This document shows, in pieces, positions 1 to 36,085 of a DNA stretch of 36,085 bases. The notes under the pieces are model-generated. The model was not told where the DNA came from. It did not search any database and was given only the letters and a program-made list of their open reading frames with translations. Position 1 is the first letter of the stretch. Every line of letters begins with the position of its first letter. The DNA lies in assembly GCA_013331945.1 (NCBI GenBank), contig DUFK01000027.1, positions 19,687-55,771 on the forward strand. Reading direction: 5' to 3'. Source of the stretch: Nanobdellota archaeon. GTDB lineage: Archaea; Nanobdellota; Nanobdellia; Pacearchaeales; UBA12030. Position numbers and translations under genes: made by a program.

Positions 1-206
1 AATTCCTGCCTGTGCCAGAATTGGAATACAGAATCTGTGACTGGGCCCCTTCCTTGTTGTATGTTCTTTGCTAATTCATAATATGTGGGCTCATCTCCAC
101 CAACCCACGTAAACTTATCTACAGAAGAAATTTGTGAGAAAGTGTAAAGGCGGAGCGCTATACCAAGCACTAAAATCAGTATAAATAAAATAAATTTATA
201 TCTCAT
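1..206 (-). CDS. ArnT/PMT-like (GT-C fold) membrane glycosyltransferase, N-terminal fragment; the gene runs off the left edge of the window
   Basis: Not in the ORF track because there is no stop inside the window. The reverse complement of 1..206 translates from an ATG (204..206) as MRYKFILFILILVLGIALRLYTFSQISSVDKFTWVGGDEPTYYELAKNIQQGRGPVTDSVFQFWHRQE. That is one N-terminal TM helix followed by a loop with an acidic GGDE motif, the same layout as the N-terminus of the 23066..24592 protein (AVRLYFF...VWWDESEH). It starts 9 nt after the stop of the upstream Dpm1-like GT2. Confidence 0.6.
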   Translation of the reverse strand, partial: MRYKFILFILILVLGIALRLYTFSQISSVDKFTWVGGDEPTYYELAKNIQQGRGPVTDSVFQFWHRQE

Positions 207-215
207 CTTCAATTA

Positions 216-953
216 TTAGGGGGATTTAGGAGGAACAGAATATTTAGACTTAATCTCTTTATTAAATTTATACAATGCTATCAGCTCTTTTATAACTACA
301 GAAGGTATCTTTCTTATAGGGAACACATTTGATTCAGCACCCTCTCTTTTCCAGTGAGTTACTGGCACTTCCACAATTTTGAATCCCTTGTAGTATGACC
401 TAACAACAAACTCAGAAGTAAAATAGCTAAGTACTCCAACTTCCTTCACAACCTCTCTAACAACCTCCTTCTTGATTAGCTTAAACCCAGTGTCCATATC
501 CTTAAGCGGTACTTTTAAAAAAACCCTCAATAAAAAATTAAACCCCTTGGAAAGAACAATCCTATAGAACGGATCCTTTCTCTTCACCTTTAAGCCTAAA
601 ATCACATCATAATCTTTGGTGTAAGGTAATAGTCTCCATATATTCTTAGGATCGAATTGGTAATCAGAGTCTACTAGCAAGATCCACTCATATTTTGGAT
701 ACCTTAAGGCTTCCTTATTTGCCCTTAAGACTCCTTTCCTCTCTTTATGCATGTAAGCTCGTATCTTCAGTTCTTTTTTTAATCTTTTAAGTATCTCCTT
801 TGTTCCATCAGTACTGCCGTCTTCTGCGACAATAATCTCAAAATCAATCTTGCCTTTAAGTTCATTATAGAAAGATCTTATACTCTTTTCTATGATATAG
901 GCTTCGTTGTAAACAGGCATAACAACAGATAGACTAGGCAGCCTTTTTTTCAT
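216..953 (-). CDS. GT2 glycosyltransferase, Dpm1-like (polyprenyl/dolichyl-phosphate sugar synthase type, no C-terminal TM)
   Basis: Motifs LSVVMPVYNE, VAEDGSTDGT and LLVDSDYQFDP (DxD). I prefer the ATG at 953 (MKKRLPSLSVV...) because AAGGGGAG lies 4-5 nt upstream of it. The ORF-track start at 998 would overlap fcl by 65 nt. Confidence 0.85.
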   Translation of the reverse strand: MKKRLPSLSVVMPVYNEAYIIEKSIRSFYNELKGKIDFEIIVAEDGSTDGTKEILKRLKKELKIRAYMHKERKGVLRANKEALRYPKYEWILLVDSDYQFDPKNIWRLLPYTKDYDVILGLKVKRKDPFYRIVLSKGFNFLLRVFLKVPLKDMDTGFKLIKKEVVREVVKEVGVLSYFTSEFVVRSYYKGFKIVEVPVTHWKREGAESNVFPIRKIPSVVIKELIALYKFNKEIKSKYSVPPKSP

Positions 954-1920
954 TTTCTCCCCTTGGTTTTTGTACTTCTTGATTCTCAAACCATTCATAT
1001 GTTCGCTTTATTCCCTCTTCTAAATCAGTTCCTGCCTTCCACCCGAGGCTATGTATCTTACTAACATCGAGTAACTTCCGGCTCATACCATCTGGTTTTG
1101 TAGTATCAAATTCTATTCCCCCCTTGAATCCAATAGAATTCCTGATAATTTCTGCAATCTCTCTTATTGTCCTATCTACCCCTGTCCCAATATTTATAAT
1201 TTCTGGAGAATTATAGTTCTTCATTAAAAAGATGCAAGCCTCGGCTAGGTCTTCTACATATAAGGCCTCTCTTCTCGGGCTACCCGTACCCCAGATCACC
1301 ACCTCTTCCTTATCAGAAATTTTTGCCTTGTGGAATTTCAGAATAAGCGATGGTACCAAGTGGGAATTCAGTGGGTCGTACTTATCATTAATCCCATATG
1401 AGTTTGCTGCAATCGCAGAGATAAAATTAGTACCATACTGCTTATTGTAGGATTGACACATTTCTACTCCAGCTATCTTTGCGATGGCGAATGGTTGGTT
1501 TGTTGGCTCTAAATTACCTGATAATAGATAGGACTCCTTTATCGGCTGGCTGCAGTCTCTCGGATAGATGCAATTGCTAGCTAAGAATAGCAATTTCTTA
1601 ACCCCAAACTTCCATGCAGAATGAATTAAATTATTCTGGATTTGCAGGTTCTTGTAAATGAACTCAGCTCTGTAAGTATTATTTGCATGTATGCCTCCAG
1701 ATTTAGCGGCCGCATCAAAAACATATTCTGGTCTCTCTTCTCGGAAGAACTCTTCGGTGACTCTTTGGTCTTCGAGGTTTAGTTCTGAAGAGGCCTTAAC
1801 AATAATGTTTTTGTACCCCTCTTTTTCAAGCCTCCGTTTAATTGCAGACCCAACCATCCCTGAATGTCCAGCAATGTATACTTTTGATTCCTCATTCATG
1901 TTTCTTCTCATCGATGTCAT
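934..1920 (-). CDS. fcl: GDP-L-fucose synthase (GDP-4-keto-6-deoxymannose 3,5-epimerase/4-reductase) family; variant with Phe at the catalytic Tyr position
   Basis: Colinear with E. coli Fcl/WcaG as I recall it: VYIAGHSGMVGSAI, LFLASNCIYP, EPTNQPFAIAKIAG, NSHLVPSLI, WGTGSPRRE, NIGTGVD, KPDGMSRKLLD. The start could also be the ATG at 1911 or 1899. Confidence 0.85.
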   Translation of the reverse strand: MTSMRRNMNEESKVYIAGHSGMVGSAIKRRLEKEGYKNIIVKASSELNLEDQRVTEEFFREERPEYVFDAAAKSGGIHANNTYRAEFIYKNLQIQNNLIHSAWKFGVKKLLFLASNCIYPRDCSQPIKESYLLSGNLEPTNQPFAIAKIAGVEMCQSYNKQYGTNFISAIAANSYGINDKYDPLNSHLVPSLILKFHKAKISDKEEVVIWGTGSPRREALYVEDLAEACIFLMKNYNSPEIINIGTGVDRTIREIAEIIRNSIGFKGGIEFDTTKPDGMSRKLLDVSKIHSLGWKAGTDLEEGIKRTYEWFENQEVQKPRGENEKKAA

Positions 1921-2947
1921 GCATTTTAATGAATTCCCTATTCCATTCTATAGTCCTTTTTACCCCTTCTTTAATCTCTACAAGATTATCCAATTTAAAC
2001 TCATTTTTTATCTTACTTATATCTAGCTTAACCCTGTCTGGTGCGCCTGCCATGAATGTCTCGCTCGTATCTCTCGGCAGAGAGTATTCTGAATTTGTAA
2101 GCTCGCATACGGTCTTAGCCAGGTCCTTGATGGATGTTAACTCCTCTCCTCCAACATTGTACACAAAAGATTCCCCGTGCAGCAGAATATTCAGTAGCAT
2201 GATAACGCAGTCTCCCACATATAGCCATGCCCTCTCCTGTCTACCACTATCCAGCAGGTCTATATATCCTTTTATCATGGCTTTATTAAGGAAATTTCCC
2301 AGGACTCTCTTATCATAGACAGATATTCCTGGGCCGTATACAGAAGAACATCTAGCAATTTTTACATCTACCCCAGATTCTTTAAAAACAGAGCAAATAG
2401 TCTCCCCTAATCTTTTTGATTCAGTATAAGGAGCTCTTTCATATATTGGGGAGCAGTTACCATTATAGCTTTCTGGAGTAGGAATTTTTTCTGCCTGACC
2501 ATAAATCTCTGATGAACTTATAAAAAGGAAAGAAGAACTGTTTTTCTTACACGTGTCCAGGAGTTTTTCAGTTACCACTGTATTTAACTTTATTGTTTCC
2601 ATTTTATTCTCCAAAAATTTCACTGGTTGAGCATAAGTAGCAGCATGGATTACATAATCGAACTTTTCATCGAATCCAGAATCTTCCACCAAATTTTTTT
2701 GATAGAAAGTACTGTTCTCATCTTCTTTTATTTCGGACAAAGTTTTATTAGGGTCATTTTTGCTTACTCCAATAACCTTTATATTCAAGTTGTGTTTCTT
2801 ATTTGCTAAATACAAGGCCATAACGATATACGTTCCTATCAAGCCATTTGATCCGGTGACTAAAATACTCTTATCCTTAAGTTTTCCAAGTTCTACCCTC
2901 TCCAATACTCTCAACAAGTCTTCTTCTATAACCTTATTCATTTGCAA
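1892..2947 (-). CDS. Extended-SDR NDP-sugar epimerase/dehydratase (UDP-glucuronate decarboxylase-like)
   Basis: Rossmann motif VTGSNGLIGTY, ISSSEIYG, and a YxxxK motif in APYTESKRLGE. It overlaps both neighbouring genes, which suggests translational coupling. Confidence 0.8.
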   Translation of the reverse strand: MQMNKVIEEDLLRVLERVELGKLKDKSILVTGSNGLIGTYIVMALYLANKKHNLNIKVIGVSKNDPNKTLSEIKEDENSTFYQKNLVEDSGFDEKFDYVIHAATYAQPVKFLENKMETIKLNTVVTEKLLDTCKKNSSSFLFISSSEIYGQAEKIPTPESYNGNCSPIYERAPYTESKRLGETICSVFKESGVDVKIARCSSVYGPGISVYDKRVLGNFLNKAMIKGYIDLLDSGRQERAWLYVGDCVIMLLNILLHGESFVYNVGGEELTSIKDLAKTVCELTNSEYSLPRDTSETFMAGAPDRVKLDISKIKNEFKLDNLVEIKEGVKRTIEWNREFIKMHDIDEKKHE

Positions 2948-3851
2948 CTATACTCCTTATTTTATTGGCAATTTCCTCTTCATTTAATCCAGATGATCTA
3001 CACAGGTCATCATATTTCCCATAGTCTGTAATGAACTTATCTCCCACACCCATCCTATACATCTCAATATTCCCAAGTTCACCCAACACCATTGAAACTT
3101 CGTCACCTAGTCCACCCCTTATACTGGCCTCCTCTACAGTTAATACTTTCCCGGTTTTTCGTGCACTTTCTATAATCAGCTCTTTATCCATTGGTTTAAT
3201 CGTGTGGATGTAGATAATCTCAGCATCAATGCCATCTTTTTTCAGAGTTGCACTTGCTTTTGCGGCGTTATCTACCTGGGGGCCAGAAACAACTATTGTA
3301 ATGTCAATCCCGTCCTTGATAACTACTCCCCTGCCAAATTTTATAATGCTTTCATCTATCTGCTGCGTATGTTTCCTTTCAGGAAGGCGGAAATAAGTCA
3401 GTTTCCCGTTATCAAAACTCTGTTTGAATAACACCTCAAGCTCTTTAGGGCTTGAGGGGTACACTACCTCTGTATTAGGCAAACTTCTTAAAATAGCTAT
3501 ATCTGAGTATGTGTGATGCGTGCACCCTAATCCAGAATAGTCAAATGCAGACCCCACGCTAACTATATTCCCCCCCACACCCTGGTAACAGAAATCATCT
3601 TTAATCTGCTCGAAGCATCTTTCTGTCACAAATGGCGCAATACTGTGGACTACCGGTATCAATCCAGCCAAGGCCATTCCAGATGCCATACTCATCATTG
3701 ATTGCTCGCATATGCCGATGTTATAGAACCTTTCAGGATAATTTTTCCTGAACTCCCTAAGACCAAAAACACTTATATCTCCAGCTAGTATCACCAACCT
3801 CTCTTCTTTCCCGCCCATCTCGAGCATTAGCCTAACGAATTCTTTTCTCAT
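2934..3851 (-). CDS. Transketolase, C-terminal (pyrimidine-binding plus C-terminal domain) subunit
   Basis: FYNIGICEQSMMSMASGMALAGLIPVVHSIAPF is the Transket_pyr signature. About 305 aa, typical of split archaeal/bacterial transketolase B subunits. ATGA overlap with the N-terminal subunit at 3848..3851. Confidence 0.9.
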   Translation of the reverse strand: MRKEFVRLMLEMGGKEERLVILAGDISVFGLREFRKNYPERFYNIGICEQSMMSMASGMALAGLIPVVHSIAPFVTERCFEQIKDDFCYQGVGGNIVSVGSAFDYSGLGCTHHTYSDIAILRSLPNTEVVYPSSPKELEVLFKQSFDNGKLTYFRLPERKHTQQIDESIIKFGRGVVIKDGIDITIVVSGPQVDNAAKASATLKKDGIDAEIIYIHTIKPMDKELIIESARKTGKVLTVEEASIRGGLGDEVSMVLGELGNIEMYRMGVGDKFITDYGKYDDLCRSSGLNEEEIANKIRSIVANE

Positions 3852-4624
3852 TTCAGCTCTTCAAGAATTTTTTTATAAGTCTCTTCATCTGGACTCTTAT
3901 GATGCCATTCCGGATTGTTTTCCATGATGCCAATACCTTTTCCTTTAACAGTATTCGCAATTATGACCTTTGGTTTTGCAGTCTTAATACCCATCATGGC
4001 CTTTACCTTTCTCTCGATTTCCTCATGATTATGGCCATCCATTTCTTCAGCTTCCCACCCGAAACTAGTCCAAATTTTCTTATAGTCATAGTCTAGGGAA
4101 TATGCTTGAGACTTGTTTTTATCAACAATCACTAGAAGATTATCTAATAACAAATTTCTTGCGACCTGAGCGCTCTCCCATATAGTCCCCTCGTTACTCT
4201 CCCCATCTCCTATAATCACAAATACCTTATTCGGCTTTTTTAATATCTTCATTGCTGTCGCGATACCCAAACCTATTGGCAACCCATGCCCCAATGAACC
4301 GGTTGAGGCCTCTACACCAGGAACCTTATTCCTATCTGGATGACCTCCAAACATACTATCAAATTTGCAAAAGGTCTTCAACTCCTCTTTATTAAAGAAT
4401 CCGACATCCGCTAATACTGCATACAGTGCGGGACAGCCATGCCCTTTACTTAGAATAAAATAATCTCTTGCATCCCAGCTCAGGTTCTTAGGGTCAAATC
4501 TTAATATCTTCTTGTATAGAATATAGATTAAATCAATTATGCCCAAGGCACTTGGAAGATGTCCCTCTGATGAGTAGTAGACCATATCTACTATGTCCTT
4601 TCTTAAAGAATTTATCTTATCCAT
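3848..4624 (-). CDS. Transketolase, N-terminal (thiamine-diphosphate-binding) subunit
   Basis: SKGHGCPALYAVLADVGF, GSLGHGLPIGLGIA, and the TPP-binding motif IIGDGESNEGTIWESAQVA. 258 aa. Confidence 0.9.
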   Translation of the reverse strand: MDKINSLRKDIVDMVYYSSEGHLPSALGIIDLIYILYKKILRFDPKNLSWDARDYFILSKGHGCPALYAVLADVGFFNKEELKTFCKFDSMFGGHPDRNKVPGVEASTGSLGHGLPIGLGIATAMKILKKPNKVFVIIGDGESNEGTIWESAQVARNLLLDNLLVIVDKNKSQAYSLDYDYKKIWTSFGWEAEEMDGHNHEEIERKVKAMMGIKTAKPKVIIANTVKGKGIGIMENNPEWHHKSPDEETYKKILEELK

Positions 4625-4781: not shown

Positions 4782-6731
4782 ATGTACTGGCCAATAACCT
4801 TACTTTTAGGATTAATTATCATCTTTGTAATCGGTTATTTGCTATTCCTCAAATTCAGACTAAAATCTGACGCATTCCTATTCTCAGTAGGGCTGGGAAC
4901 AATGTTTATAGTTTTCCTGCTTTTCTCCATAAACCAGTACTTTAGATTACCTATTAGCCCCACCAATACCTGGATAGCAATTATATCCTCACTACTATTC
5001 CTATTATTGGTAAATTATAACCTGCTTATTAGAGAAGTTCCAAGAATTAAGTTTAAATTTAAGCCAAAATTTAGCGCCTTTTCTATATTGATACTGGCAG
5101 TCTTCATTATCGCTTTTTACAAATCAGTTTTCTTCCCGATAACTGCAGATGATGCAGTTTTAATGTATGCATTTATCTCTGAAAGATCTTGGGATGATGG
5201 ATTCCCTCCGTCAGCAACCTCTTCTTATATGGAGATATCTTATGCCTACCCGAACACAAATTTCGTATTATTTTTTTATAACTACTTTTTTGGTTTAAAT
5301 TTTGGATTCGATGACATATTCATTAGAGTTCTAATTCCATTGTTTTCTTTATTAAATCTCTTGCTTTTCTATAGACTATCGTTCGCCCTATTTAAAAACA
5401 AAGAGATAGCGCAGCTCACCGCAGTGATTTTTGCAAGCAGTACGATCTTCGCTTCGGGTATAATTCAGGAGTATACGACTATGTATGAGGTTTTCTTCTC
5501 TTTTATGGCCGTTTACGCCTTTGTTCTTTATAACGAAGATAAGGATTATAGGTATCTTGTACTGACGGGGGTATTCCTCGCTTCAATTTTAATGATTAAA
5601 TATACTCTAATCCCATTTGTACTCTTCTTCTTGGTATCTATGCTGGTCTTCAATAGAAGTATAAAGACTATAGTGAAACTCGCAATTGTAATTATCCCCG
5701 TGTCATTGGTGTTCTATCTAAGAAACATAATATCTTATAAAAATCCAGTATACCCCTTCTTTTTCGGCGGGGAGAATTTTAATGCTAAACTATTTGAGAT
5801 ACAGAATACCTTTGCAAATGTCCCCAGTTATACAGTAGAACAGCTATTTGTAGCTCTAATCCCAATTAGTTTATTTATATTCATATTTTTCATCTGCTTC
5901 CTGCTAGATTACATCAAGTCTGAAAAGAAAAATTCTACCTACAACATCTTAATTCTAACTGCAGTCTTATACCTGCTTTTTTGGTCTTGGACATCCGCAT
6001 TCATAAAAGAGACGCAAGGCATGCGTCACCTAATAGAATCTTTCGGGATAATCTCCCTATTCTCGGCCGCGTTCTTATACAAAAAAATCCATGATAGGTC
6101 TAAGATTATATTATACTCATTAATACCTGCAATATCTGCTTTTTCGATTTATTGGTTGTACTTCGTTTTTGTGCCTGATCCCTATTTCGAATATTCTAAA
6201 AACCTGCTTACCTTGATGTTCTTACAGCCGGTACTCCTAACTTGCTCTCTTCTCTTGCTAAGGTCAAAAATAAATTCTAAGAAGATATTGGCTTTGGTAA
6301 TTATTTCTCTTATGATTGTACCAATAGGTTTTGCCGCATTCGCCAAGAGAACAGCTCTTTGGGAGTACCCATCTGACGAAGAGGTAATTGAAAGGTATTA
6401 TCCAGACCACTTCGAAGTTTTTCAGTACATAAACAAGAATTTGCCAGCAGACGCAAAAATTCTGAGCCTTTATAATCAGAGGTATTACATCAAAAGAGAG
6501 ATATTGCCGGCGGATTCGCCAAGAGTATCCTTCCTTTACGAGAATACCTCCATTGATAGTGCTATCAATAAACTAGAATCCATGGGCGTCAATTATATCC
6601 TAGTTTCGGAGATGGAGAAAAATCTGCCATTCTGGCAGATTTCTGTTGTACATCGTGCACATGAAGAAAGGAATTTAAAATTAACTGTTCTTTACAAAAA
6701 TGAGGAGGTTACGCTTTACGAGATAAGTTAG
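4782..6731 (+). CDS. Polytopic membrane protein with C-terminal soluble domain; probable GT-C-fold (ArnT/PMT-like) glycosyltransferase
   Basis: 649 aa. Hydrophobic segments run through about residue 520. An acidic loop motif FPITADDAVLMY follows the first few TM helices, and there is a roughly 125-aa hydrophilic C-terminus (WEYPSDEEVIERYYPDHF...). The architecture resembles the 23066..24592 protein. The functional call is weaker than the CDS call. Confidence 0.5.
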   Translation: MYWPITLLLGLIIIFVIGYLLFLKFRLKSDAFLFSVGLGTMFIVFLLFSINQYFRLPISPTNTWIAIISSLLFLLLVNYNLLIREVPRIKFKFKPKFSAFSILILAVFIIAFYKSVFFPITADDAVLMYAFISERSWDDGFPPSATSSYMEISYAYPNTNFVLFFYNYFFGLNFGFDDIFIRVLIPLFSLLNLLLFYRLSFALFKNKEIAQLTAVIFASSTIFASGIIQEYTTMYEVFFSFMAVYAFVLYNEDKDYRYLVLTGVFLASILMIKYTLIPFVLFFLVSMLVFNRSIKTIVKLAIVIIPVSLVFYLRNIISYKNPVYPFFFGGENFNAKLFEIQNTFANVPSYTVEQLFVALIPISLFIFIFFICFLLDYIKSEKKNSTYNILILTAVLYLLFWSWTSAFIKETQGMRHLIESFGIISLFSAAFLYKKIHDRSKIILYSLIPAISAFSIYWLYFVFVPDPYFEYSKNLLTLMFLQPVLLTCSLLLLRSKINSKKILALVIISLMIVPIGFAAFAKRTALWEYPSDEEVIERYYPDHFEVFQYINKNLPADAKILSLYNQRYYIKREILPADSPRVSFLYENTSIDSAINKLESMGVNYILVSEMEKNLPFWQISVVHRAHEERNLKLTVLYKNEEVTLYEIS

Positions 6732-6751
6732 GCTAAGAGTGATAATTTAAA

Positions 6752-7702: not shown

Positions 7703-7715
7703 CGTAAAGATGGTA

Positions 7716-9620: not shown

Positions 9621-9625
9621 CTCTC

Positions 9626-28050: not shown

Positions 28051-28080
28051 CTTACCCTTGCCAATCATTAGTGCAGAAAA

Positions 28081-28097: not shown

Positions 28098-28098
28098 T

Positions 28099-29037: not shown

Positions 29038-29069
29038 TTGTCTCGCCCCACAGCCTTACTATTTAAGAA

Positions 29070-29549
29070 TCATAAACCTCTTTCGTAAACCACTGTTTTG
29101 ACCCCGGGAGGCCTTTTATCTGGATCTTCGTAAGCCTCTCTTAAAACAAAGCCGGTTTTCTGCATTATCCTCTCAACAGCTTTATTTCCTTCCCAGCTAT
29201 CCATGATTATTGTTTTGTATTGGTTATATCTCTCTTTCCCCTCCAGTATCAGAAAATCCAGTAGCGCAGATCCAATGCCATGCCCCTGATGTTCTGGAGA
29301 AACAGCATAAGTAGAGATCTCTACTTCCTTCTCCCTTGGTATAAGAGCACAACATCCAGCAACATTCCCCCCTTCATCGATTGCTAGTGCCCAAAGACCC
29401 GCTTTATATTTTGAATAAACTCTTTCTGCAATAGAGATAGCTCTAGAAGACAATGGTTTGATGAATGCTAAATCTATTTCAGGCCTACTGAGAAACCCAG
29501 TTAGTTTTTCTAAATCTCCCTCATTCGCGATAATATATGTCACTTTCAT
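29070..29549 (-). CDS. GNAT-family N-acetyltransferase
   Basis: Acetyl-CoA motif A HQGHGIGSALLDFL. 159 aa. ATGA overlap with the upstream epimerase gene. Confidence 0.8.
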   Translation of the reverse strand: MKVTYIIANEGDLEKLTGFLSRPEIDLAFIKPLSSRAISIAERVYSKYKAGLWALAIDEGGNVAGCCALIPREKEVEISTYAVSPEHQGHGIGSALLDFLILEGKERYNQYKTIIMDSWEGNKAVERIMQKTGFVLREAYEDPDKRPPGVKTVVYERGL

Positions 29550-30484
29550 TCTCCCAATCTCACTTTCAGAACATCTCTTACCCCATTAGAGATACTGTAT
29601 ATTGGCTTAAAGCCCAAAACCTTTATAGCCTTTTCCATATCTGCGGAGATATGCCTTACATCTCCCTTACGCGCAGCCTCAAATCTTGGCCCTGCGCCCC
29701 GCTCCGAGCCCTCTGCATCCTTGCCAAGCACATCACTTATAATCTCGTAAAGATCTAGAATGCTTGTGCTCTTGCCAGAACCTACATTGAAAACTCCGAT
29801 AAGCCCTTTCTTGAGCGCAAGAATATTTGCTCTTGCCACATCCCGCACATGCACAAAATCTCTTGTCTGTTTTCCATCCCCGAAGATTGTCACTTGCTTT
29901 CCCTGCTTAAGCGCAGAGATGAAATTTGGAACAACTGCCCCATATGCAGTATTCGAGGGCTGCCTCTTGCCATATACATTGAAATAGCGCAGACACACCG
30001 TTTCTATCCCATATAGCTGATTGAAAAGCTTGCAATACTGCTCTCCAATAAGTTTGCTTATCGCATAGGGAGATTTTGGATCCAGCTTGTCCTGTTCCCC
30101 GCATCTCTCCTTTTCACCATAAACAGCGCACGAAGAGGCAAAAATAACTTTCTTGATTCCAGAATCACGTGCAGCAAGCAAGACCTTGAGTGTGCCATCT
30201 ACATTTGCCTCATTCGTTTCCAGGGGATTCTCAACAGATTTTGCAACCTGGATGAGTGCAGCTTCGTGGAAAACTGCATCTGCATTCCTGAACTCTTTCT
30301 TCAGAAGCGAAAGGTTTCTTATGTCTCCCTTGACGAAACCGATCTTCTTCCACACATTTTTCAGATTCTCTTTTTTCCCTGCGGAAAGATTATCTATGAC
30401 TTTCACCTCTTCGCCCCGTGCGATGAGATCTTCAACAATATGTGAGCCAATAAATCCTGCTCCCCCAGTCACTATGGTCTTCAT
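29546..30484 (-). CDS. galE: UDP-hexose/UDP-HexNAc 4-epimerase (GalE/WbpP-like extended SDR)
   Basis: IVTGGAGFIGSHIVEDL, ASSCAVYG, SPYAISKLIGE (YxxxK), FGDGKQTRDFVHVRD. Confidence 0.7.
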   Translation of the reverse strand: MKTIVTGGAGFIGSHIVEDLIARGEEVKVIDNLSAGKKENLKNVWKKIGFVKGDIRNLSLLKKEFRNADAVFHEAALIQVAKSVENPLETNEANVDGTLKVLLAARDSGIKKVIFASSCAVYGEKERCGEQDKLDPKSPYAISKLIGEQYCKLFNQLYGIETVCLRYFNVYGKRQPSNTAYGAVVPNFISALKQGKQVTIFGDGKQTRDFVHVRDVARANILALKKGLIGVFNVGSGKSTSILDLYEIISDVLGKDAEGSERGAGPRFEAARKGDVRHISADMEKAIKVLGFKPIYSISNGVRDVLKVRLGE

Positions 30485-30517
30485 TTTTATCGTGAAAATT
30501 TAATTACAAAAATTTAG

Positions 30518-31504
30518 TCATGAGAATGCAATTGCAACTATAGCAAGAGCGATCTCTAAAGCCCAGATGGAGTAAACAACTTCTTTCTCATACGCCTTTC
30601 CTTTGATTTTCTTCAGTACAAAAATGCTCAAATGGGTCAGGCTGTAAATTCCTCTGTACTGCATATCCAGAGTGCCATCTTTATTCACTCGCGCAAAGCT
30701 CTCCTTCTTGAATTTGCCTCTGGCTTTCAGAAGAAATTCTATAAAGTATGGAAAGAATAGAATCAGAGCGGCCTTTTCTGCATTTCCTGTTATCGCAATT
30801 GCTGCAATGAGCGCACCGATTGAGTAAGTTAAGGTATCTCCTGGAAATACTTTCGCAGGATATTTGTTGAAAAAGAAAAATGCAAGTAATGCGAAGACTG
30901 CGATGCCGGCGATAACAGAGGCCCAGAACGCTCCAGCTTTCCATATGAGGAACGCAAGCGTCGATAGTATGATGATTGCATTTCCAGATTCGATACCATT
31001 CATTCCAGCAAGCATATTGAATGAGTTAGTCGCAAAAATTACCCCCAGAGGAACGATGAGCAAGGGGTAAAGTATTCCGAAATCAAATGTCCCGAACAAA
31101 GGGATGGTCATGTCAGATGTTCCCGCATTCAGCACAGCGAGTGGAATTGCAATCGGAATCGAAAGCAAGAACTTGTGGAACTGCTTTAGCCCGACTTTCC
31201 ATCCAAGGATGTCATCTATGAATCCGATAAATCCTGCAAGCAAGAAAGTTATCGTTATCCCAAGAATCTCTATGAGCTCTATGTTCACATTTATCACAAA
31301 AGTATTGATAAATATATAGAATAGAACACCCGCGAGAGTGGAAAATATTACGACAATGCCTCCGGCCTCTGCAACACTCTCTTTGGATTTCTTCTGGATA
31401 TCTTTTCCAGCAAGTCCAAGTGCTTTGGCCTTTCTGATCCAGATTGGAGTCATTATCCACGATGCCAGGAATGCAATCACGAATGAAACTAACGCTAGTG
31501 CCAT
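30518..31504 (-). CDS. aglH: UDP-GlcNAc:dolichyl-phosphate GlcNAc-1-phosphate transferase (Glycos_transf_4; MraY/WecA/Alg7 superfamily)
   Basis: Polytopic membrane protein with FIGFIDDILGWK and NSFNMLAGMNGIESG motifs. 328 aa. Located next to aglB. Confidence 0.8.
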   Translation of the reverse strand: MALALVSFVIAFLASWIMTPIWIRKAKALGLAGKDIQKKSKESVAEAGGIVVIFSTLAGVLFYIFINTFVINVNIELIEILGITITFLLAGFIGFIDDILGWKVGLKQFHKFLLSIPIAIPLAVLNAGTSDMTIPLFGTFDFGILYPLLIVPLGVIFATNSFNMLAGMNGIESGNAIIILSTLAFLIWKAGAFWASVIAGIAVFALLAFFFFNKYPAKVFPGDTLTYSIGALIAAIAITGNAEKAALILFFPYFIEFLLKARGKFKKESFARVNKDGTLDMQYRGIYSLTHLSIFVLKKIKGKAYEKEVVYSIWALEIALAIVAIAFS

Positions 31505-31515
31505 TTTCCCTATCC

Positions 31516-32649
31516 TTATAATGCCTTGAACAAGAATTTTGTTAATAAAGGTTGTGCCATGAGCAGCTTAAGGGCAAATGAGTTGCCAGAATACTCATCC
31601 CTGCTGTGTTCCTTCAGGAGCTTTTTCACACTCTCTTTGTTCATCATCTTAAGGAGTGCGTCGTAATCAGCATCAGAGAACCTATCAAGCGCCCTTCTTA
31701 TCTTTAGATGGATTCTCATCTCTCTCTTTAAGTTTCCGAGCTCTTTTTCATAGTTCCCACCATTGATTATCGCTCCTGCGAGAGCTTTTGCAGAATGGAG
31801 AGAAGGAATTATTCCCCCGAGTGTTGAGGCCTTGACAAATGTAGCAGCTTCTCCCACCAAGAAAATATTCCTGTCAGAGATATTCTGCTTTTTGCTGTAT
31901 AGCGATATTGGCCCGCCAGTGTGGCCAGAGACCTTTCCATGTATCCCCCTCTCCTTAAGAAATTCGCGGAACTTTTCCGATGTTCCTTCTTTGCACCCGA
32001 GCCCCACTTCAGCGAGCTCTGCATTTTTTGGAACAATCCATGCGAACAATTCGCGGTATTTTTCAGAAAAGAAGATGTCCATCCTCTCTGGATCGCTCTT
32101 GTATGCTATGTTTGCCTGAACGCAAGGGATGAATTCTCGCTCATTTCCGAGTCCTTTGGAAACTTTGCTGAAGAACCCATCTGCACCTATCAGGAAATCA
32201 GTCTTTATCTTTTCAATCTTGCCATGCCTTTCGATATGAACAATTATTTCCCCCCTTCCATTCCCCCCATTCCATTCCCGTTCGAATTTAATGAATTTGC
32301 TGTGCAGATTCAGTTTTGCACCCTCTTTTTCTGCGAGAGCAGATAGCCACTTATCAAATCTTTCCCGGTCGAGAACTAGATCGGGCTCTTTAAGTTCCAA
32401 TTCAAGCTTCTCATTCTCTGAGAATAGCCTTACCTTGCTTATCTTCCCCCCTATGATCTTGGTGAATTCCTCGCAAGAGAATATGGGATCTATATCACTG
32501 ATGGTCTTAGTTACGAGGCCGCTGCATTGCACAGGCTTCCCTACTTCACCGTGGTTCTCAAATATTTCAACATCGAACTGGCCTGTCTTCGCTAAGTTAT
32601 ATGCAGCAAAACTTCCGGCAGGCCCAGCACCGATAATACAGACTTTCAT
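31516..32649 (-). CDS. Geranylgeranyl reductase family flavoprotein (candidate polyprenol/dolichol reductase)
   Basis: FAD motif VCIIGAGPAGSFAAYNLA, VQCSGLV, LVGEAATFVKASTLGGI. 377 aa. Confidence 0.8.
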   Translation of the reverse strand: MKVCIIGAGPAGSFAAYNLAKTGQFDVEIFENHGEVGKPVQCSGLVTKTISDIDPIFSCEEFTKIIGGKISKVRLFSENEKLELELKEPDLVLDRERFDKWLSALAEKEGAKLNLHSKFIKFEREWNGGNGRGEIIVHIERHGKIEKIKTDFLIGADGFFSKVSKGLGNEREFIPCVQANIAYKSDPERMDIFFSEKYRELFAWIVPKNAELAEVGLGCKEGTSEKFREFLKERGIHGKVSGHTGGPISLYSKKQNISDRNIFLVGEAATFVKASTLGGIIPSLHSAKALAGAIINGGNYEKELGNLKREMRIHLKIRRALDRFSDADYDALLKMMNKESVKKLLKEHSRDEYSGNSFALKLLMAQPLLTKFLFKAL

Positions 32650-32682
32650 TTTATCGTGAGAATAGGAAATTATTGATTAGTA

Positions 32683-35529
32683 TCAGTAGGAAGAACCTTG
32701 GGATCGGGATAATTCTTCAGAAGGGAAATCGGTTTTCAGGAAAGTCGAGTTAATTTTGGTTCCCTTTGGATAACTTATCTCCCATATCTTGATCGGCGCT
32801 CTTACCCCATTGAAGTCGATGATGCTTGGTATCTTCAACCCCGTTTTTGCTCTTATATCTGCAACAAGTATGTCCTCTTCTGTATGCACCAGCTTGAAAC
32901 TAGGATTTTTCTCCTCGAGCAAGTAAAGTCTCGCCATCAGACTATTCTTTGTCTTTGGTGAGAGATAGAACGCAGAACCAATACTCTTCAGTTTCCCATC
33001 TTGACTAAGCCTTGAAATTACATACAGGCATCCATCTATTCCTTCTCCTTGGAACTCGATCTTCCTCTCCTCTACGAATAAGCATTTAAGGGGTATGTCC
33101 ACCCTATTTCCATTATTGACTGCTATTGCTGTAGGTTTCTCAAATATCGTTCCGCCGTTTTCTCCATTCTTTACTGGAACTAAGAATCCACCGATTCCTG
33201 AAGTTTGCTTAGGGAAGAATTCGCCTTTCCAGGAAAAATCATCGTCAAATGCAGCTCCGCCCTGGAATAGGTACACAACTCCGTCCCTTGTCTCTTGAGT
33301 TGCCTCTTCATTTAGTCCGAATGGTGGGATGCTGCTGAATCTATCAAAATTAGCATCGCTCCCTATAAGGGAATATGCGGGATATTTTCCGATATCTGAA
33401 GAATCTATCAGTAAGTGTGTAGAGTTATGTGTGTACAGAAATTCCAGCGCTTCCTTATCACTCGGACTCGTGAGGACATAACGTCCCATCAAATGATCCC
33501 AGTAAGGGATTGCATTTCCTCCATCTAACACAGTTGCCCTCTCTCCGCCAGTCTGCACCCAGTAACCATAATCCCACCAGTGTGCAAAGACCGCATCTTG
33601 CACCGTATTTCCTTTGACCCAATCCATCGCTCCCATCCATTGCGGATGCAAGTTTGGATAAGAGCCCTTTGTCTGTGCAGCGCTTGCCTTGAAGAATGCA
33701 GAGAACATGAATAACGCAAGTATGGCTATAAGAAGCACGATAGCTATCTTCAGCAGATTATCTTTGAATCTTCCCGCGTTCTCGCCAACCTTTACGATGA
33801 ATAGTGCTCCAAGAACTGATGCGATTGGTGCAAGGAAGTAGATAAGTCTTACAGCTCCCCTCGCACCTATGACTGCCCATGCAAACCAGATTAATGTAAG
33901 GAAGAAAACAATGTCTATCGATTCAAAGTTTTTCATTTCCTCTTTTTCCTTTCTAGAGGCTATTGTAGTCAGATAAAGGAGCAAGAGTCCGAATAATGCC
34001 ATTCCTCCGAAAAAGAAAACCTGTGAAATCAGGTTTGTTCCATTGAATATTGATTCTGGTGTGTATCTTGTGAAAATCAAGGTCAGGATGAAAATTGCAG
34101 ATGTGATCATAAGAGCTATCTTATATCTCTTGCCGAAGTGCGCGAAAAGCATGTATGCGAGGAGAATTGCGCCGGCAATCATCAGCCAGAAGAAGAGCCC
34201 GAAGTTGCCTATCCATTGGACCGTGTATGGCTGCTGATTCTCTGCGACTGTCAATGTGAGCCTCAATGTTCCGAATGGATGCAAGAGCTGTTCCTTCGTC
34301 GCATTTATGAAACTAAATAACTGGCCAAAGCCCTTGTAAAATCCAAAGACGAGAACTGCCAATAGGAATCCAAGGACGATACCGCTTACATTGTGCGGGA
34401 GTCTCAGGATCCTTTTATCTTTCAGTTTTGAATTAAACAGGAAAAAGAGAAGGAACATCGGAAGTGGAAGGAAAACAATTCCTGATGAAGGATCTGTCAC
34501 AAAGCCGAGCAAGCTGTATCTAGCGCTGATAAACAGCGTCGGCACCATCGCGAGAACGAGCACAAGATAGAACATGAATTCTTTCTTTCCCAGCTGGTTG
34601 AACAAAAGTAGTGCTAGAAAAGTGAAGCCGATGATCATGAACAGGAAGCTTACAGCACCCCATGTCAATCCGACTAATCCAGTCGCAACTCCAGAAAGCA
34701 CTCCATACGCAATTCTCCATTTGGAATTGCTCTCTCTGAAACCTGAGACGAGGAAATAAAGCGCTCCGAAAAAGAACAAAGTTCCAAGAGGCTCTTTATC
34801 AGAGAATCCGAGCATTGTTCTCTGCAGGAATGCAGGTATCACTGCAAGGAATGCAGACGCAACAAGGGCGACACGCCAATCAAATATTTTCTTCACAAGG
34901 AAGAAGAAAGCGATGATTATGAACGGGAAGATTATGACTGGGTAAAGCATATCTACAGTCAAGACAGATATTACGGGATTAAATATATGAATCACTTTAT
35001 ACATTCCGGCAATAAAGTACGCGAGCAACCTCGATTCCTGCAGCGTGTTGAATCCTATCGGAACATAACGCATCCAGTCCATTACGGGAAGTGATCCTTG
35101 CTCGGCTATCGTCTGAGCGTAGCGAAGGAAGAGCGCAGAATCAGGATCTGCAGGCAAGGCTCCTGCCTGAATCATACTGAGATTTCGTGTTCTGATCCAT
35201 ACGCCAATCCAGATTATAACTAATAATGCTGCATAGTAGAACAATTCAGGACCCCTTTTTAAGAATCCGCCAGCTTTTGCGAAACTCCCGCTAATCTTTT
35301 CTTTTCTTATTTCAAATATATCTTTTTTCTGAGCGCTATGGTCGTGAGATTGGCTGTGGGCCGGCTGAGTTGAATGGTGCACAGGTGTGTGCTCTGGGTG
35401 ATGATGCTCTTGCCTTGCAGGAGTGCTGTCACTTGCGTTGCTGCTACTGCTCCCATTGCCACCAAATACGCTTGAGAATCCCTCAGCAACTTTCTTCTTT
35501 CGCTCTTCGAGCTCGCTTCCCTCAGCCAT
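32683..35529 (-). CDS. aglB: Archaeal oligosaccharyltransferase AglB (STT3 family)
   Basis: WWDYG motif (AHWWDYGYW, codons at 33565..33579). First-loop acidic motif LPADPDSALF, GFSDKEPLG (DxE), and a TIxE/SVSE-like TVAE. About 13 TM segments plus a large C-terminal soluble domain. 948 aa, including a roughly 95-aa hydrophilic His-rich N-terminal extension. Confidence 0.92.
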   Translation of the reverse strand: MAEGSELEERKKKVAEGFSSVFGGNGSSSSNASDSTPARQEHHHPEHTPVHHSTQPAHSQSHDHSAQKKDIFEIRKEKISGSFAKAGGFLKRGPELFYYAALLVIIWIGVWIRTRNLSMIQAGALPADPDSALFLRYAQTIAEQGSLPVMDWMRYVPIGFNTLQESRLLAYFIAGMYKVIHIFNPVISVLTVDMLYPVIIFPFIIIAFFFLVKKIFDWRVALVASAFLAVIPAFLQRTMLGFSDKEPLGTLFFFGALYFLVSGFRESNSKWRIAYGVLSGVATGLVGLTWGAVSFLFMIIGFTFLALLLFNQLGKKEFMFYLVLVLAMVPTLFISARYSLLGFVTDPSSGIVFLPLPMFLLFFLFNSKLKDKRILRLPHNVSGIVLGFLLAVLVFGFYKGFGQLFSFINATKEQLLHPFGTLRLTLTVAENQQPYTVQWIGNFGLFFWLMIAGAILLAYMLFAHFGKRYKIALMITSAIFILTLIFTRYTPESIFNGTNLISQVFFFGGMALFGLLLLYLTTIASRKEKEEMKNFESIDIVFFLTLIWFAWAVIGARGAVRLIYFLAPIASVLGALFIVKVGENAGRFKDNLLKIAIVLLIAILALFMFSAFFKASAAQTKGSYPNLHPQWMGAMDWVKGNTVQDAVFAHWWDYGYWVQTGGERATVLDGGNAIPYWDHLMGRYVLTSPSDKEALEFLYTHNSTHLLIDSSDIGKYPAYSLIGSDANFDRFSSIPPFGLNEEATQETRDGVVYLFQGGAAFDDDFSWKGEFFPKQTSGIGGFLVPVKNGENGGTIFEKPTAIAVNNGNRVDIPLKCLFVEERKIEFQGEGIDGCLYVISRLSQDGKLKSIGSAFYLSPKTKNSLMARLYLLEEKNPSFKLVHTEEDILVADIRAKTGLKIPSIIDFNGVRAPIKIWEISYPKGTKINSTFLKTDFPSEELSRSQGSSY

Positions 35530-35560: not shown

Positions 35561-35578
35561 CAATTTAAAAGTCTTTTC
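35561..35578 (-). promoter_or_regulatory. BRE/TATA-like promoter box of aglB
   Basis: The minus strand reads GAAAAGACTTTTAAATTG. The TATA core is centred about 37 nt upstream of the aglB ATG (35529), which predicts a leader of about 10 nt. Confidence 0.5.
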
Positions 35579-35583
35579 ACTTT

Positions 35584-35651
35584 CCGCGCCCCATTTCAGT
35601 GCCCCGCGCCCTGCGCTCCTCGCTCCCGGCCCCGCGCTCCCCGCCCCGCGC
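35584..35651 (-). repeat. GC-rich tract with short direct repeats (3x CCCCGCGC on the + strand); G-quadruplex motif on the minus (transcribed) strand
   Basis: 57 of 68 nt are G/C by hand count, within an AT-rich locus. CCCCGCGC occurs at 35602..35609, 35630..35637 and 35644..35651. Seven C-runs of 3 or more are present. The minus strand reads GGGG-C-GGGG-AGCGC-GGGG-CC-GGG. Confidence 0.7.
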
Positions 35652-35656
35652 AATCA

Positions 35657-36085
35657 TCATGCAAATAGTGCCGGCGTTATGAAAATTTCTATCAATGTAC
35701 CGATGAAAAGAAGCCCTATTGCAATAAGGATCAGTACGAGAGCATCTTTAAGCACCTTGCGGAATCTTCCGTCATCGAAGTGATGCCTTATGACTGCCGT
35801 GCCAATGATTCCTCCAGCAAGCGCCGCTGTGAAATAGGCGAGAATCTCTGGAACCCCGTGGATCATAAACCTGAGGAATCCTAATGGAAGGGCATGCAAC
35901 TCGCGTGAAAAGATACCCATAGCAGCTCCGATGACGCTTGCGTTCCATGCCAGGATAAATATCGCTCCCGCGCCAAAGAAGAATGAGAAGAAAAGGCTTA
36001 GGAGCATGACATTGATGTTATTGAAGAATATAATCTTGAACTCCTTTGAGATGAATTCTGCGTTGCTGTTAGAACTTACCTTTCC
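35657..36085 (-). CDS. SpoIIM-family (stage II sporulation protein M-like) integral membrane protein, C-terminal part; the gene continues past the right edge
   Basis: The frame stays open from 36085 down to the TGA at 35657..35659, reading GKVSSNSNAEFISKEFKIIFFNNINVMLLSLFFSFFFGAGAIF...HGVPEILAYFTAALAGG.... The FxNN and HGxxEl motifs and the multiple TM helices are typical of the family. Confidence 0.65.
   Translation of the reverse strand, partial: GKVSSNSNAEFISKEFKIIFFNNINVMLLSLFFSFFFGAGAIFILAWNASVIGAAMGIFSRELHALPLGFLRFMIHGVPEILAYFTAALAGGIIGTAVIRHHFDDGRFRKVLKDALVLILIAIGLLFIGTLIEIFITPALFA

Follow-up and report, generated by a model that had tools for sequence, protein, structure and literature searches.

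In Haloferax volcanii, the agl cluster groups the oligosaccharyltransferase AglB with AglJ, AglG, AglI, AglE, AglD, AglS and AglR. AglJ and AglD, together with AglS, are archaeal counterparts of ArnC/ArnT-like enzymes, and AglD and AglS attach sugars activated by dolichol phosphate at the outer side of the membrane. The 36,085-nucleotide stretch of DNA analyzed here (the window) carries a locus of unusual make-up that is nevertheless an elaboration of this known kind, the archaeal agl clusters, rather than a new system. As in Haloferax, AglB is clustered with GT2, GT4, methyltransferase and sugar-nucleotide enzymes, accessory content is variable and an AglJ/ArnC-like dolichol-phosphate-sugar synthase is predicted, while the PMT_2 GT-C enzymes could act as AglS does, using a dolichol-phosphate-activated sugar outside the membrane. 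The NCBIfam AglJ and AglG models also match island proteins. In contrast to the Haloferax cluster, priming is of the AglH type, pointing to a HexNAc start linked through pyrophosphate; the conserved core includes a GT9 gene, the island has three or four GT-C genes and no AglR-like flippase, cassettes with a 3-dehydratase, a transketolase (TK)-like enzyme and AsnB are present, and the host, a DPANN archaeon, has a small genome.

WecB has been described in methanogens, and we know of no GT9, dideoxyhexose or GT-C decoration in the N-glycan pathway of Methanococcus voltae and M. maripaludis. Like the one predicted here, that pathway starts with an AglH-type enzyme, uses ManNAc(A) residues derived from WecB and modifies uronic acids with amide or acetamidino groups, but the methanogen genes are scattered (PMC11407970). 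The ArnC/ArnT and GtrB/Gtr(type) decoration systems likewise combine a GT2 bearing C-terminal transmembrane (TM) helices with polytopic PMT_2 GT-C enzymes, whereas the window lacks GtrA, ArnE/F and an LPG_synthase_TM-type flippase (PF03706 genes are present in relatives) and a glycan attached to protein presumably takes the place of lipid A or O-antigen as acceptor. The preliminary description had pictured an archaeal core joined to bacterial-type modules. This mixture is upheld by Pfam matches, AglB and AglH occurring together with GT9, a His-type 3-dehydratase, WecB, AsnB and ArnC/ArnT-like enzymes, but several of the modules already have archaeal counterparts.

The window is 97.8% coding, almost gap-free as described, with 31 complete open reading frames (ORFs) of at least 100 aa and two more cut at its ends, nearly all assigned to glycan synthesis by Pfam. 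Searches of the window for tRNAs and against Rfam gave no match. Pfam recognizes 14 glycosyltransferase (GT) domains (four GT2, three GT4-type, three GT9, two PMT_2, AglB and AglH), close to the roughly 15 first estimated, and the four methyltransferases noted before. As had been stated for flippase, polymerase and chain-length regulator, no window ORF matches Wzx/Polysacc_synt, Wzy_C or Wzz at E ≤ 1e-3, and no flippase is encoded in about 57 kb (window plus flanks). The locus extends beyond the window, by 10 kb or more on the left. The window is probably the larger part of a DPANN protein-glycosylation/surface-glycan island that is contiguous over at least 45 kb. The island can with reasonable likelihood be divided into a lineage-conserved AglB core and a variable accessory layer (1–24600 and 10 kb or more on its left). 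Every substrate named below is predicted from family-level homology scoring below equivalog cut-offs.

The core operon (24605–35529, minus strand), which includes a GT9 gene, is conserved in related DPANN archaea; 1–24600 is accessory. Comparison with relatives showed synteny with a related DPANN contig, L094, at 46–74% identity; past the methyltransferase, the L094 genes are unrelated. AglB (32683–35529; 948 aa, about 13–15 TM helices; PF02516, 55.4 bits) carries the motifs WWDYG (residue 651), DPD (residue 128) and DIGK, in keeping with its first annotation. Its N-terminal extension is His/Ser-rich, and it is 47% identical to the L094 AglB. Directly upstream, and conserved in L094, is the 3′ part of a SpoIIM-family membrane protein gene (35657–36085, minus strand, running off the window; PF01944), a putative and so far unproven island member. 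A geranylgeranyl-reductase (GGR)-family flavoprotein (31516–32649; PF01494; TIGR02032, 154.5 bits, just under the cut-off of 158.8) matches the GGR paralogue reported earlier and may saturate polyprenol or dolichol; the gene was not found in L094. The AglH assignment also stands: the initiating enzyme is an AglH/WecA-type polyprenol-phosphate HexNAc-1-P transferase (30518–31504; PF00953, 113.6 bits; about 10 TM helices) with a syntenic, 69% identical counterpart in L094.

Next in the operon are a TviC/GalE-like SDR nucleotide-sugar 4-epimerase (29546–30484; NCBIfam TviC 210 and GalE 203.5 bits, both below cut-off) and a GNAT acetyltransferase (29070–29549; PF00583, 49.4 bits). The ArnC/PgfS/AglJ-like GT2 (28099–29037; full-length match to NCBIfam ArnC at 157.6 bits, AglJ 92 bits) has two C-terminal TM helices (residues 243–296), is 68% identical in L094 and would be a dolichol-phosphate sugar synthase. 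The same gene lies directly upstream of a GT9 in L101, L103, L109, L124, L125 and L176, and here it precedes GT9c (27001–28068; PF01075, 108.6 bits), which is syntenic with and 59% identical to its L094 counterpart. The distal end is formed by a GT2 (26177–27004), a GT4 (25159–26205) and a methyltransferase (24605–25162), all Pfam assignments and 60%, 46% and 74% identical to syntenic L094 genes.

The accessory layer begins with a minus-strand cassette (216–4624) of a TK-like N-half (3848–4624), a TK-like C-half (2934–3851), an SDR of 351 aa, an Fcl-like epimerase/reductase (934–1899; 437.9 bits with the Fcl model, whose cut-off is 500, and 348 bits with E. coli Fcl) and a GT2 (216–953), whose PMT_2 partner gene lies immediately beyond the window; the cassette genes are Pfam assignments. 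The split transketolase had been counted as an archaeal hallmark, which it is not. Its closest named relatives among the matches listed are all bacterial, and the TK-N, TK-C, SDR and Fcl-like genes are collinear with, and 56–62% identical to, a cassette in a Wzy/Wzz/Wzm-Wzt polysaccharide locus (L098). A PMT_2 GT-C enzyme (4782–6731, plus strand; 649 aa, about 12–14 TM helices; PF13231, 35.5 bits) is followed by a methyltransferase (within 4782–7702, plus strand). AsnB-type glutamine amidotransferase (7716–9620, minus strand; PF00733, 284 bits; TIGR01536, 495.7 bits, above the cut-off of 267.1), identified as such before, is accompanied by a methyltransferase and a weakly matching deacetylase-like protein (7716–11115, minus strand).

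An operon at 11168–16420 (plus strand) encodes a LegB/RmlB-like 4,6-dehydratase SDR, a methyltransferase, an (alpha/alpha)6-barrel protein, a GT4 and WecB (15293–16420; 377 bits, as annotated). The barrel protein (12920–14107; AF2 model pTM 0.63) gave weak Foldseek matches to AGE epimerases, GH76 and GH88. A further plus-strand operon (18824–24592) holds GT9a (18824–19891; PF01075, 80.8 bits), a GT4, a GT9–GT2 fusion of 650 aa with GT9 as its N-terminal half (21087–23039; PF01075, 59.9 bits) and a second PMT_2 GT-C enzyme (23066–24592; 508 aa, about 9 TM helices). Together with the ArnC-like GT2 of the core, the two PMT_2 proteins account for the ArnC/GtrB-like and ArnT-like pair proposed earlier; four PMT_2 genes lie in and around the island.

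The DegT-family protein (17525–18796, minus strand; likely start 18745) is a PMP-dependent sugar 3-dehydratase in which His replaces the Schiff-base Lys. This residue aligns to E1 His220 and is retained in homologues, which agrees with the ColD/E1 type assigned at the outset. As in the GDP-L-colitose pathway (Gmd, ColD, ColC; E. coli O55/O111, Yersinia pseudotuberculosis), the E1 Fe-S Cys motif was not found in the dehydratase, the adjacent SDR (16417–17481, minus strand; likely start 17370) is of the GDP-sugar GMD/RMD clade, and the island also has an Fcl/ColC-like gene. Nevertheless, the dehydratase is no nearer to ColD (180.4 bits) than to E1 (185 bits) and falls in a separate, widespread subfamily (55–58% identity), and the window has no mannose-1-P guanylyltransferase. 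Two partners had been proposed for it. The supposed Gmd is closer to RMD, a GDP-4-keto-6-deoxymannose reductase (PDB 2pk3, 292.6 bits), than to GDP-heptose 4,6-dehydratase (7us5, 244 bits) or GMD (at most 182.4 bits), and the Fcl-like gene belongs to the TK cassette, 15 kb distant; colitose synthesis is therefore only one, unproven option.

The left flank encodes a CDP-dideoxyhexose pathway. As in the Salmonella/Yersinia rfb CDP-3,6-dideoxyhexose pathway (RfbF, RfbG, RfbH/E1, RfbI/E3, RfbS/J), it contains RfbF (340 bits, cut-off 300.25), an RfbG-like protein (226 bits, cut-off 278.45), RfbH (516.1 bits, cut-off 423; His present) and one further SDR. It differs from that pathway in its archaeal host, in having no E3 reductase gene and in an RfbH homologue in which the C-x-C-x7-C cluster motif of E1 was not found.

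In the assembly we propose, AglH would prime dolichol phosphate with HexNAc-1-P, soluble GT9, GT2 and GT4 enzymes would build up the lipid-linked glycan on the cytoplasmic side of the membrane, and the core methyltransferase would cap it. A flippase encoded elsewhere would move the glycan across the membrane for AglB to hand to Asn of surface proteins; the link from cytoplasmic assembly to AglB is incomplete because no flippase was found in the ~57 kb. The accessory layer would consist of self-contained cassettes, each a source of a tailored activated sugar or of transferases: the 3-dehydratase and RMD/GMD-clade SDR may yield a GDP-linked 3,6-dideoxyhexose, the pathway outside the window CDP-3,6-dideoxyhexose, WecB ManNAc-type sugars and AsnB amidated uronic acids, with the TK-like/SDR/Fcl-like cassette and two more GT9 domains as further putative parts. 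PMT_2 GT-C enzymes and ArnC/DPM1-like GT2s would attach sugars activated by dolichol phosphate at the outer side. Judging from sequence relationships, the accessory cassettes and the GT2+GT9 pair, which bacteria also have, were most likely acquired by horizontal transfer.

The acceptor of the accessory operons could instead be O-glycans or a lipoglycan. Rather unlikely, though the strongest competitor, is that the AglB-proximal core alone serves N-glycosylation while 1–24600 and the left flank make a separate, AglB-independent product, which could be PMT_2-made protein O-glycans, as eukaryotic and actinobacterial PMTs make, or a membrane-anchored lipoglycan or capsule-like polysaccharide. The accessory region is indeed missing in L094, where the cluster stops after the methyltransferase, it has its own divergent promoters and GT-C enzymes, and its cassettes come from loci making O-antigen or capsule-type polymers in bacteria. 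Against this, Wzy, Wzz, an ABC exporter and a second initiating transferase are all missing in the ~57 kb, contiguity of AglB with the accessory region is kept in every contig recovered, and N-glycans are known targets of AglS-type GT-C enzymes.

The three GT9 genes had been called heptosyltransferase-like. Profile-HMM annotation left them in GT9, with three PF01075 domains above the gathering score and, as in WaaC/WaaF/WaaQ (CAZy GT9), GT-B domains with a conserved D-S-G-x-x-H block. Unlike those enzymes, they score below cut-off for every heptosyltransferase equivalog in NCBIfam (I/II/III, RfaQ, RfaF, RfaC), GT9c sits within the AglB operon, and the paralogues are only 22–26% identical to one another. 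'Heptosyltransferase' is a family label only, and no donor-sugar pathway was identified for them. It is very doubtful that they are true heptosyltransferases in a locus whose product is a glycolipid resembling the LPS core, destined for an outer layer of the envelope. The idea draws on the three domains, on GDP-heptose 4,6-dehydratase as second-best PDB match of the dehydratase-adjacent SDR, on transketolase chemistry, which can give sedoheptulose-7-P, and on a related TK pair that L099 carries together with SIS and PfkB/CTP_transf_like genes, in a cluster of heptose type. However, neither GmhA, HldE and GmhB (~57 kb) nor Kdo and lipid A genes (window and flanks) were found, the TK-like active site is non-canonical, without the GEDG motif, and close GT9 homologues occur in Patescibacteria, which are not known to have LPS. 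Among the archaeal counterparts of bacterial-type modules is an LPS-type heptose in the Thermoplasma N-glycan (PMC11407970). AglB–GT2–GT9 linkage recurs in two further lineages (a P0008 contig and L103), and the GT2+GT9 pair also in contigs carrying LepA and a Wza-like exporter. Among the matches listed, GT9c, the dehydratase and TK-N have many bacteria as their closest named relatives, such as KSB1, Patescibacteria, Dehalococcoidia, Chlorobium and Falkowbacteria.

Taxonomic placement by flanking markers showed the contig to be archaeal, not bacterial: the island is flanked by L15, SecY, EMC3/DUF106 and prefoldin, and the flanking proteins are named 'Nanoarchaeota archaeon' or 'archaeon GW2011_AR6' (DPANN lineage). 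The AglB and L15-SecY-prefoldin arrangement recurs in at least 23 contigs (read from 59 index blocks) and is 100% identical over 4.7 kb where checked. A bacterial contig, or a mis-assembly joining archaeal to bacterial DNA, can be dismissed with near certainty: the nearest named relatives of many genes are bacterial among the matches listed, but independent assemblies from ENA, JGI and NCBI samples share the identical arrangement, contiguous with L15-SecY-EMC3-prefoldin, GC varies smoothly between 0.36 and 0.46, archaeal-type TATA spacing is seen in core and accessory parts alike, and a relative at 59% identity keeps the ribosomal-protein-AglB-GT9 synteny. The TATA boxes noted earlier are borne out by TATA-like hexamers at −34 to −22, about −27, upstream of 7 of the 19 leading start codons, compared with 4.8% of random positions. 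The host, an uncultured DPANN archaeon from groundwater, is of the GW2011_AR6 type and entered as 'Nanoarchaeota' in TPA records.

A Pfam scan of every ORF bore out nearly throughout the gene inventory that the preliminary description had drawn up from the sequence alone. The window holds 31 complete ORFs (at least 100 aa) and two truncated by its ends, together 97.8% of the 36,085 bases; GC drifts between 0.36 and 0.46, and no tRNA genes or Rfam matches were found in the window. The AglB homolog (STT3, 948 aa, 32683–35529) scores 55.4 bits against the PF02516 cut-off of 24.5. It has about 13–15 hydrophobic segments, DPD at residue 128, WWDYG at residue 651 with ...DSSDIGK... further downstream, and a weak PF21436 match at 649–673. 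An STT3 N-terminal multi-TM domain with DxD, WWDYG and a DK-type motif, in an archaeal genome, identifies it as AglB, as had been proposed. Its first 90 or so residues (1–90, 35260–35529) lie ahead of the first TM helix as an extension with many His, Ser, Gln and Glu residues (HHHPEHTPVHHSTQPAHSQSHDH). The window also encodes an AglH/WecA-type transferase (PF00953, 30518–31504), a geranylgeranyl-reductase-family flavoprotein (31516–32649; TIGR02032, 154.5 bits versus a cut-off of 158.8), WecB (15293–16420, 377 bits), AsnB (7716–9620) and two PMT_2 GT-C proteins (4782–6731 and 23066–24592). Four methyltransferases were counted, as described, and 14 GT domains instead of about 15. The reported lack of a Wzx flippase, Wzy polymerase and chain-length regulator held: Wzx/Polysacc_synt, Wzy_C and Wzz (models sought: PF01943, PF13440, PF04932 and PF02706) had no match at E ≤ 1e-3 in any window ORF, and the flanks likewise lacked them.

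The AglB end of the locus recurs in relatives. In a groundwater contig from Hainich assigned to a "Nanoarchaeota archaeon" (L094), the order L15, SecY, EMC3, prefoldin, SpoIIM, AglB, AglH and a NUDIX gene is followed by ArnC-like GT2, GT9, a gene for a 275-aa protein, GT2, GT4 and methyltransferase, and then by unrelated genes. Genes common to L094 and window positions 24605–35529 are 46–74% identical. An AglB–GT2–(methyltransferase)–GT9 arrangement was found on the contig of P0008 (GT9 45% identical) and again on contig L103 (GT9 48% identical). On account of this synteny in L094, P0008 and L103, 24605–35529 is considered a lineage-conserved core operon with GT9 as a fixed member. The island thus consists of two layers, and 1–24600 together with the left flank is the accessory layer. 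A SpoIIM-family polytopic membrane protein of 289 aa is encoded directly upstream of AglB in both DPANN lineages (window 35657–36085; contig L001 9004–9873; L094 2904–3770); a tie to glycan translocation would be pure speculation.

In the accessory layer, the DegT-family protein at 17525–18796 adjoins a GMD-like SDR at 16417–17481. The His of its FFIAHN motif aligns to His220 of E1 (3bcx versus the H220K mutant 3bb8), a position held by Lys in aminotransferases, and is kept in five homologs. The assignment as a ColD/E1-type 3-dehydratase, a DegT fold with His in place of the Schiff-base Lys, was thus upheld. A second, different His-type 3-dehydratase is found in the island at 12339–13655 of contig L092, above the RfbH equivalog cut-off. 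The window enzyme lies as far from ColD (180.4 bits), a GDP-4-keto-6-deoxymannose 3-dehydratase, as from E1 (185 bits), and its likeness to ColD does not exceed that to E1. Both island enzymes lack the C-x-C-x7-C Fe-S motif of E1 and no E3 reductase gene lies nearby; in addition, the neighboring SDR belongs to a GDP-sugar clade. A ColD-like, E3-independent mechanism is predicted for the two enzymes. The window dehydratase falls in a large subfamily (55–58% identity), with named members from Dehalococcoidia, Elusimicrobiota, Scalindua, Mariniphaga and Nanoarchaeota.

The neighboring SDR had been called Gmd, a name that could not be retained. It scores 216.4 bits with TIGR01472, for which the Gmd cut-off is 415, and its best PDB match is RMD (2pk3, 292.6 bits), ahead of GDP-heptose 4,6-dehydratase (7us5, 244 bits) and the GMDs (182.4 bits or less). 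The S-S-E (Ser/Thr-Glu) and Y-x-x-x-K residues occur in each of these enzyme types and do not discriminate between them. Judged by these scores, the protein is a GDP-sugar SDR, either dehydratase or reductase. An RMD-type reduction, for instance, would lead to a D-configured 3,6-dideoxyhexose. The suggested Fcl/ColC-like partner does resemble Fcl (NF047922, 437.9 bits versus a cut-off of 500; 348.2 bits to E. coli Fcl over the full length), but its gene comes fourth in the transketolase operon, a place it keeps in contig L098, and is not a neighbor of the dehydratase. For this reason, colitose is one of several possible products.

To the left of the window, at least 10 kb more of glycan genes follow on the same contigs. 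They encode a third PMT_2 protein, a second DegT protein, two SDRs and a 404-aa protein without a family match, as well as a nucleotidyltransferase, a GT2, an IMPase-like phosphatase, a Lys-type aminotransferase, a hexapeptide acyltransferase and a deacetylase. Against NCBIfam models, a glucose-1-phosphate cytidylyltransferase scores 340 bits (cut-off 300.25), an RfbH/E1 protein 516.1 bits (cut-off 423) and a CDP-glucose 4,6-dehydratase-like SDR 226 bits (cut-off 278.45); this trio amounts to a CDP-3,6-dideoxyhexose pathway. The RfbH protein has the His as well, and a 377-aa DegT protein of the flank has Lys. The 404-aa protein was considered as a flippase and rejected, since it is soluble, lacks TM segments and matches nothing in Pfam or NCBIfam.

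The split transketolase (3848–4624 and 2934–3851) had been listed as an archaeal hallmark, which did not stand: its closest named relatives are all bacterial and its motif is non-canonical. L098 carries the two halves, a 347-aa SDR and a 322-aa Fcl-like protein in collinear order with 56–62% identity, surrounded by BY-kinase/Wzz, Wzy_C and Wzm/Wzt genes, from which we infer that this contig is bacterial. On contig L099, a related pair belongs to a sugar cluster that also contains SIS and PfkB/cytidylyltransferase genes. Canonical transketolases possess a substrate-binding and catalytic block, ..H.G...GEDG(P/A)(S/T)HQ.., in the Pyr domain, read as THAGLTVGEDGASHQ in the split enzyme of C. hydrogenoformans and as SHCGVSIGEDGPSQM in the human one. 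The C-halves of the three pairs compared (window 2934–4624, L098 8001–9706 and L099 8001–9685) read VGSAFDYSGLGC(T/S)HH, and the GEDG-type block was absent from all three. The motif assigns the cassette to a glycan-cluster transketolase-like family, probably not a housekeeping enzyme, and this may be an uncharacterized ThDP enzyme family of sugar modification. Such C-halves are accompanied by an SDR and an Fcl-like reductase in the DPANN archaeon and in a Wzy/Wzz/Wzt locus alike. This family, occurring in bacterial and archaeal loci, is probably the most general lead obtained here.

With the observed gene content, motifs, synteny, common cassettes and archaeal context in hand, the following pathway is proposed as the most likely one. 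AglH would prime dolichol phosphate, and the soluble core GT9, GT2 and GT4 enzymes would extend the glycan on the cytoplasmic face and the methyltransferase would cap it, while the GGR-like enzyme may modify the polyprenol carrier. A flippase encoded elsewhere would translocate the glycan, and AglB would transfer it to Asn. ArnC/DPM1-like GT2s may load dolichol phosphate with single sugars that PMT_2 GT-C enzymes would attach outside the membrane as AglS does. As unusual donors, the accessory cassettes would provide GDP- and CDP-dideoxyhexoses, ManNAc-type sugars, amidated uronates and the product of the transketolase-like cassette, together with extra transferases.

As the main alternative, the accessory layer would make O-glycans or a lipoglycan and have no part in the AglB glycan. 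The accessory genes adjoin the AglB operon in the window, and L094 keeps that operon next to unrelated genes; we give this alternative a modest chance of being right. A more far-reaching reading is that a bacterial-type module of GT9 and ArnC-like GT2 was fixed and vertically inherited in the AglB operon of one DPANN lineage, whose AglB-dependent pathway adds to surface proteins sugars that are not known from Archaea, namely two distinct 3,6-dideoxyhexoses and whatever a new transketolase-like, sugar-modifying cassette makes. This further step is put forward tentatively, as a rather unlikely proposal. If true, the N-glycan would be "O-antigen-like" and might set the host specificity of the episymbiont. 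DPANN archaea are tiny-genome episymbionts, and their surface decides to which host they attach; we know of nothing reported on their glycans. Here a single glycan island takes up at least 45 kb and illustrates how an archaeal N-glycosylation core can take in whole sugar cassettes also found in bacteria. Loci of the archaeal agl type are known and notoriously variable, and the entry of bacterial genes into DPANN genomes is well documented; this limits how surprising the island is. In the literature searched, no description was found of a GT9 fixed in an AglB operon, of His-type 3-dehydratases (and with them 3,6-dideoxyhexoses) at an archaeal locus for glycosylation, or of the GEDG-less transketolase-like cassette. 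GT9 acting on a dolichol-linked acceptor and E3-independent 3-dehydratases in Archaea are testable candidates.

All three GT9 domains described earlier (18824–19891, the N-terminal half of 21087–23039, and 27001–28068 in the core operon) exceed the PF01075 gathering score of 22, with 80.8, 59.9 and 108.6 bits, and are mutually 22–26% identical. Of the label "heptosyltransferase-like", the family membership stood, but every LPS heptosyltransferase equivalog in NCBIfam scored below its cut-off (best 105.9 versus 170.2 bits, TIGR02201). No SIS, PfkB or CTP_transf_like gene for the ADP-heptose pathway (GmhA, HldE, GmhB, HldD) and no Kdo or Lpx gene was found among the window ORFs and 10-kb flanks; about 57 kb contained no heptose-nucleotide, Kdo or lipid A genes. 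In both respects the enzymes differ from WaaC, WaaF and WaaQ. A true LPS-like product, which the GT9 family membership might bring to mind, is very improbable.

The best homologs of the core-operon GT9 are metagenomic and Nanoarchaeota proteins (50–59% identity), followed by those of KSB1, Woesearchaeota, Patescibacteria and Omnitrophota (38–45%). A metagenome contig search yielded L103 and GT2–GT9 pairs among the matches listed. Pairs of an ArnC-like GT2 and a GT9 with 33–43% identity occur on contig L109, directly after a PMT_2 gene, and on contig L124, which looks bacterial because it carries LepA and a Wza-like exporter. In a search of genome contigs with the GT9 alignment, the GT9s among at least 600 matches listed were bacterial only (22–35% identity); the source genome itself was not among these matches, and the result says nothing on archaeal distribution.

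The core-operon GT2 (28099–29037) covers residues 8–295 of the 316 of the ArnC model with 157.6 bits (equivalog cut-off 529), scores 92 bits with AglJ and has TM helices at 243–296, which places it in the ArnC/GtrB/AglJ type. Described archaeal counterparts exist in Haloferax AglD/AglS and in methanococcal WecB. The status of the ArnC/ArnT-like pairs, WecB and LPS-type sugars as bacterial was not sustained, since the AglJ model of NCBIfam matches the GT2 and LPS-type heptose occurs in the N-glycan of Thermoplasma according to a review (PMC11407970). GT2 genes are paired with PMT_2 GT-C genes at window 216–953 with L092 10784–12313, at L001 481–2810 and at window 21087–24592; besides these three pairs, a lone PMT_2 lies at 4782–6731. 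Such repeated pairing points to several lipid-linked decoration steps that are independent of one another.

On the right-hand side of AglB follow SpoIIM, CutA, RimK, an aspartic protease, prefoldin, EMC3/DUF106, a PALP enzyme, SecY and L15, a gene set that is archaeal; a GT2 and PMT_2-like pair lies between SecY and L15. These flanking markers (L15, SecY, EMC3, prefoldin) uphold the archaeal origin that had been claimed and speak against a bacterial contig. Neighboring proteins carry names such as "MAG TPA: ... [Nanoarchaeota archaeon]" and "[archaeon GW2011_AR6]"; the latter stands under unclassified Archaea in the NCBI taxonomy and was reportedly placed in Pacearchaeota in the Rifle groundwater study. 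When exact copies of window proteins were sought, all 23 contigs that were read, out of 59 index blocks, showed this arrangement; they come from groundwater assemblies deposited at ENA, JGI and NCBI, and the DNA is 100% identical across 4.7 kb where checked. A chimeric assembly is hardly credible. TATA-like hexamers lie 22–34 nt upstream of 7 of the 19 start codons with upstream non-coding DNA (random positions, 4.8%), although AT-rich spacers inflate this test; the spacing fits archaeal promoters with short or absent leaders.

The Fcl-like gene looks fragmented (96 aa, or 81 + 243 aa) in the public re-assemblies L091 and L093. Pseudogenes arising by strain variation were considered and rejected, as the breaks are runs of N at scaffold gaps (L091 9527–9625 and L093 9300–9309). 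TK-N is split in L093 as well, with 8 gap columns at 99.67% identity. Such N-filled gaps call for caution when pseudogenes are assigned in these records.

A 395-aa protein (12920–14107), whose gene in the WecB operon has a methyltransferase gene on one side and a GT4 gene on the other, gave only faint squalene-cyclase and pectate-lyase matches. Single-sequence AF2 returned a generic (alpha/alpha)6 barrel (pTM 0.63, pLDDT 58) with a weak resemblance to AGE-family epimerases, GH76 and GH88 that is too little to assign a function. The exact 13-mer AAAGGTTTCTATT occurs at 11127–11139 (−) and 18800–18812 (+), each time in a divergent intergenic spacer, after an A/T-rich TATA-like stretch and ending 12 nt before a start codon (of a deacetylase-like gene and of the GT9 gene at 18824–19891). 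As a locus-wide regulatory motif it was rejected (4 matches versus 2.9 expected with two mismatches allowed), and only its two exact copies stand out; it may be a common promoter or initiator element of the two genes. In relatives, an LPG_synthase_TM membrane protein (PF03706), a candidate lipid-linked-sugar flippase family with no member in the window or flanks, adjoins GT2 or GT9 genes (contigs L096 16965–17918 and L100 14869–15822, and the P0008 contig). On L096, from Woesearchaeota, a UDP-glucose/GDP-mannose dehydrogenase gene with an intein (Intein_splicing and LAGLIDADG; 5584–8283, also contig L097 986–3685) adjoins a GT9 homolog.
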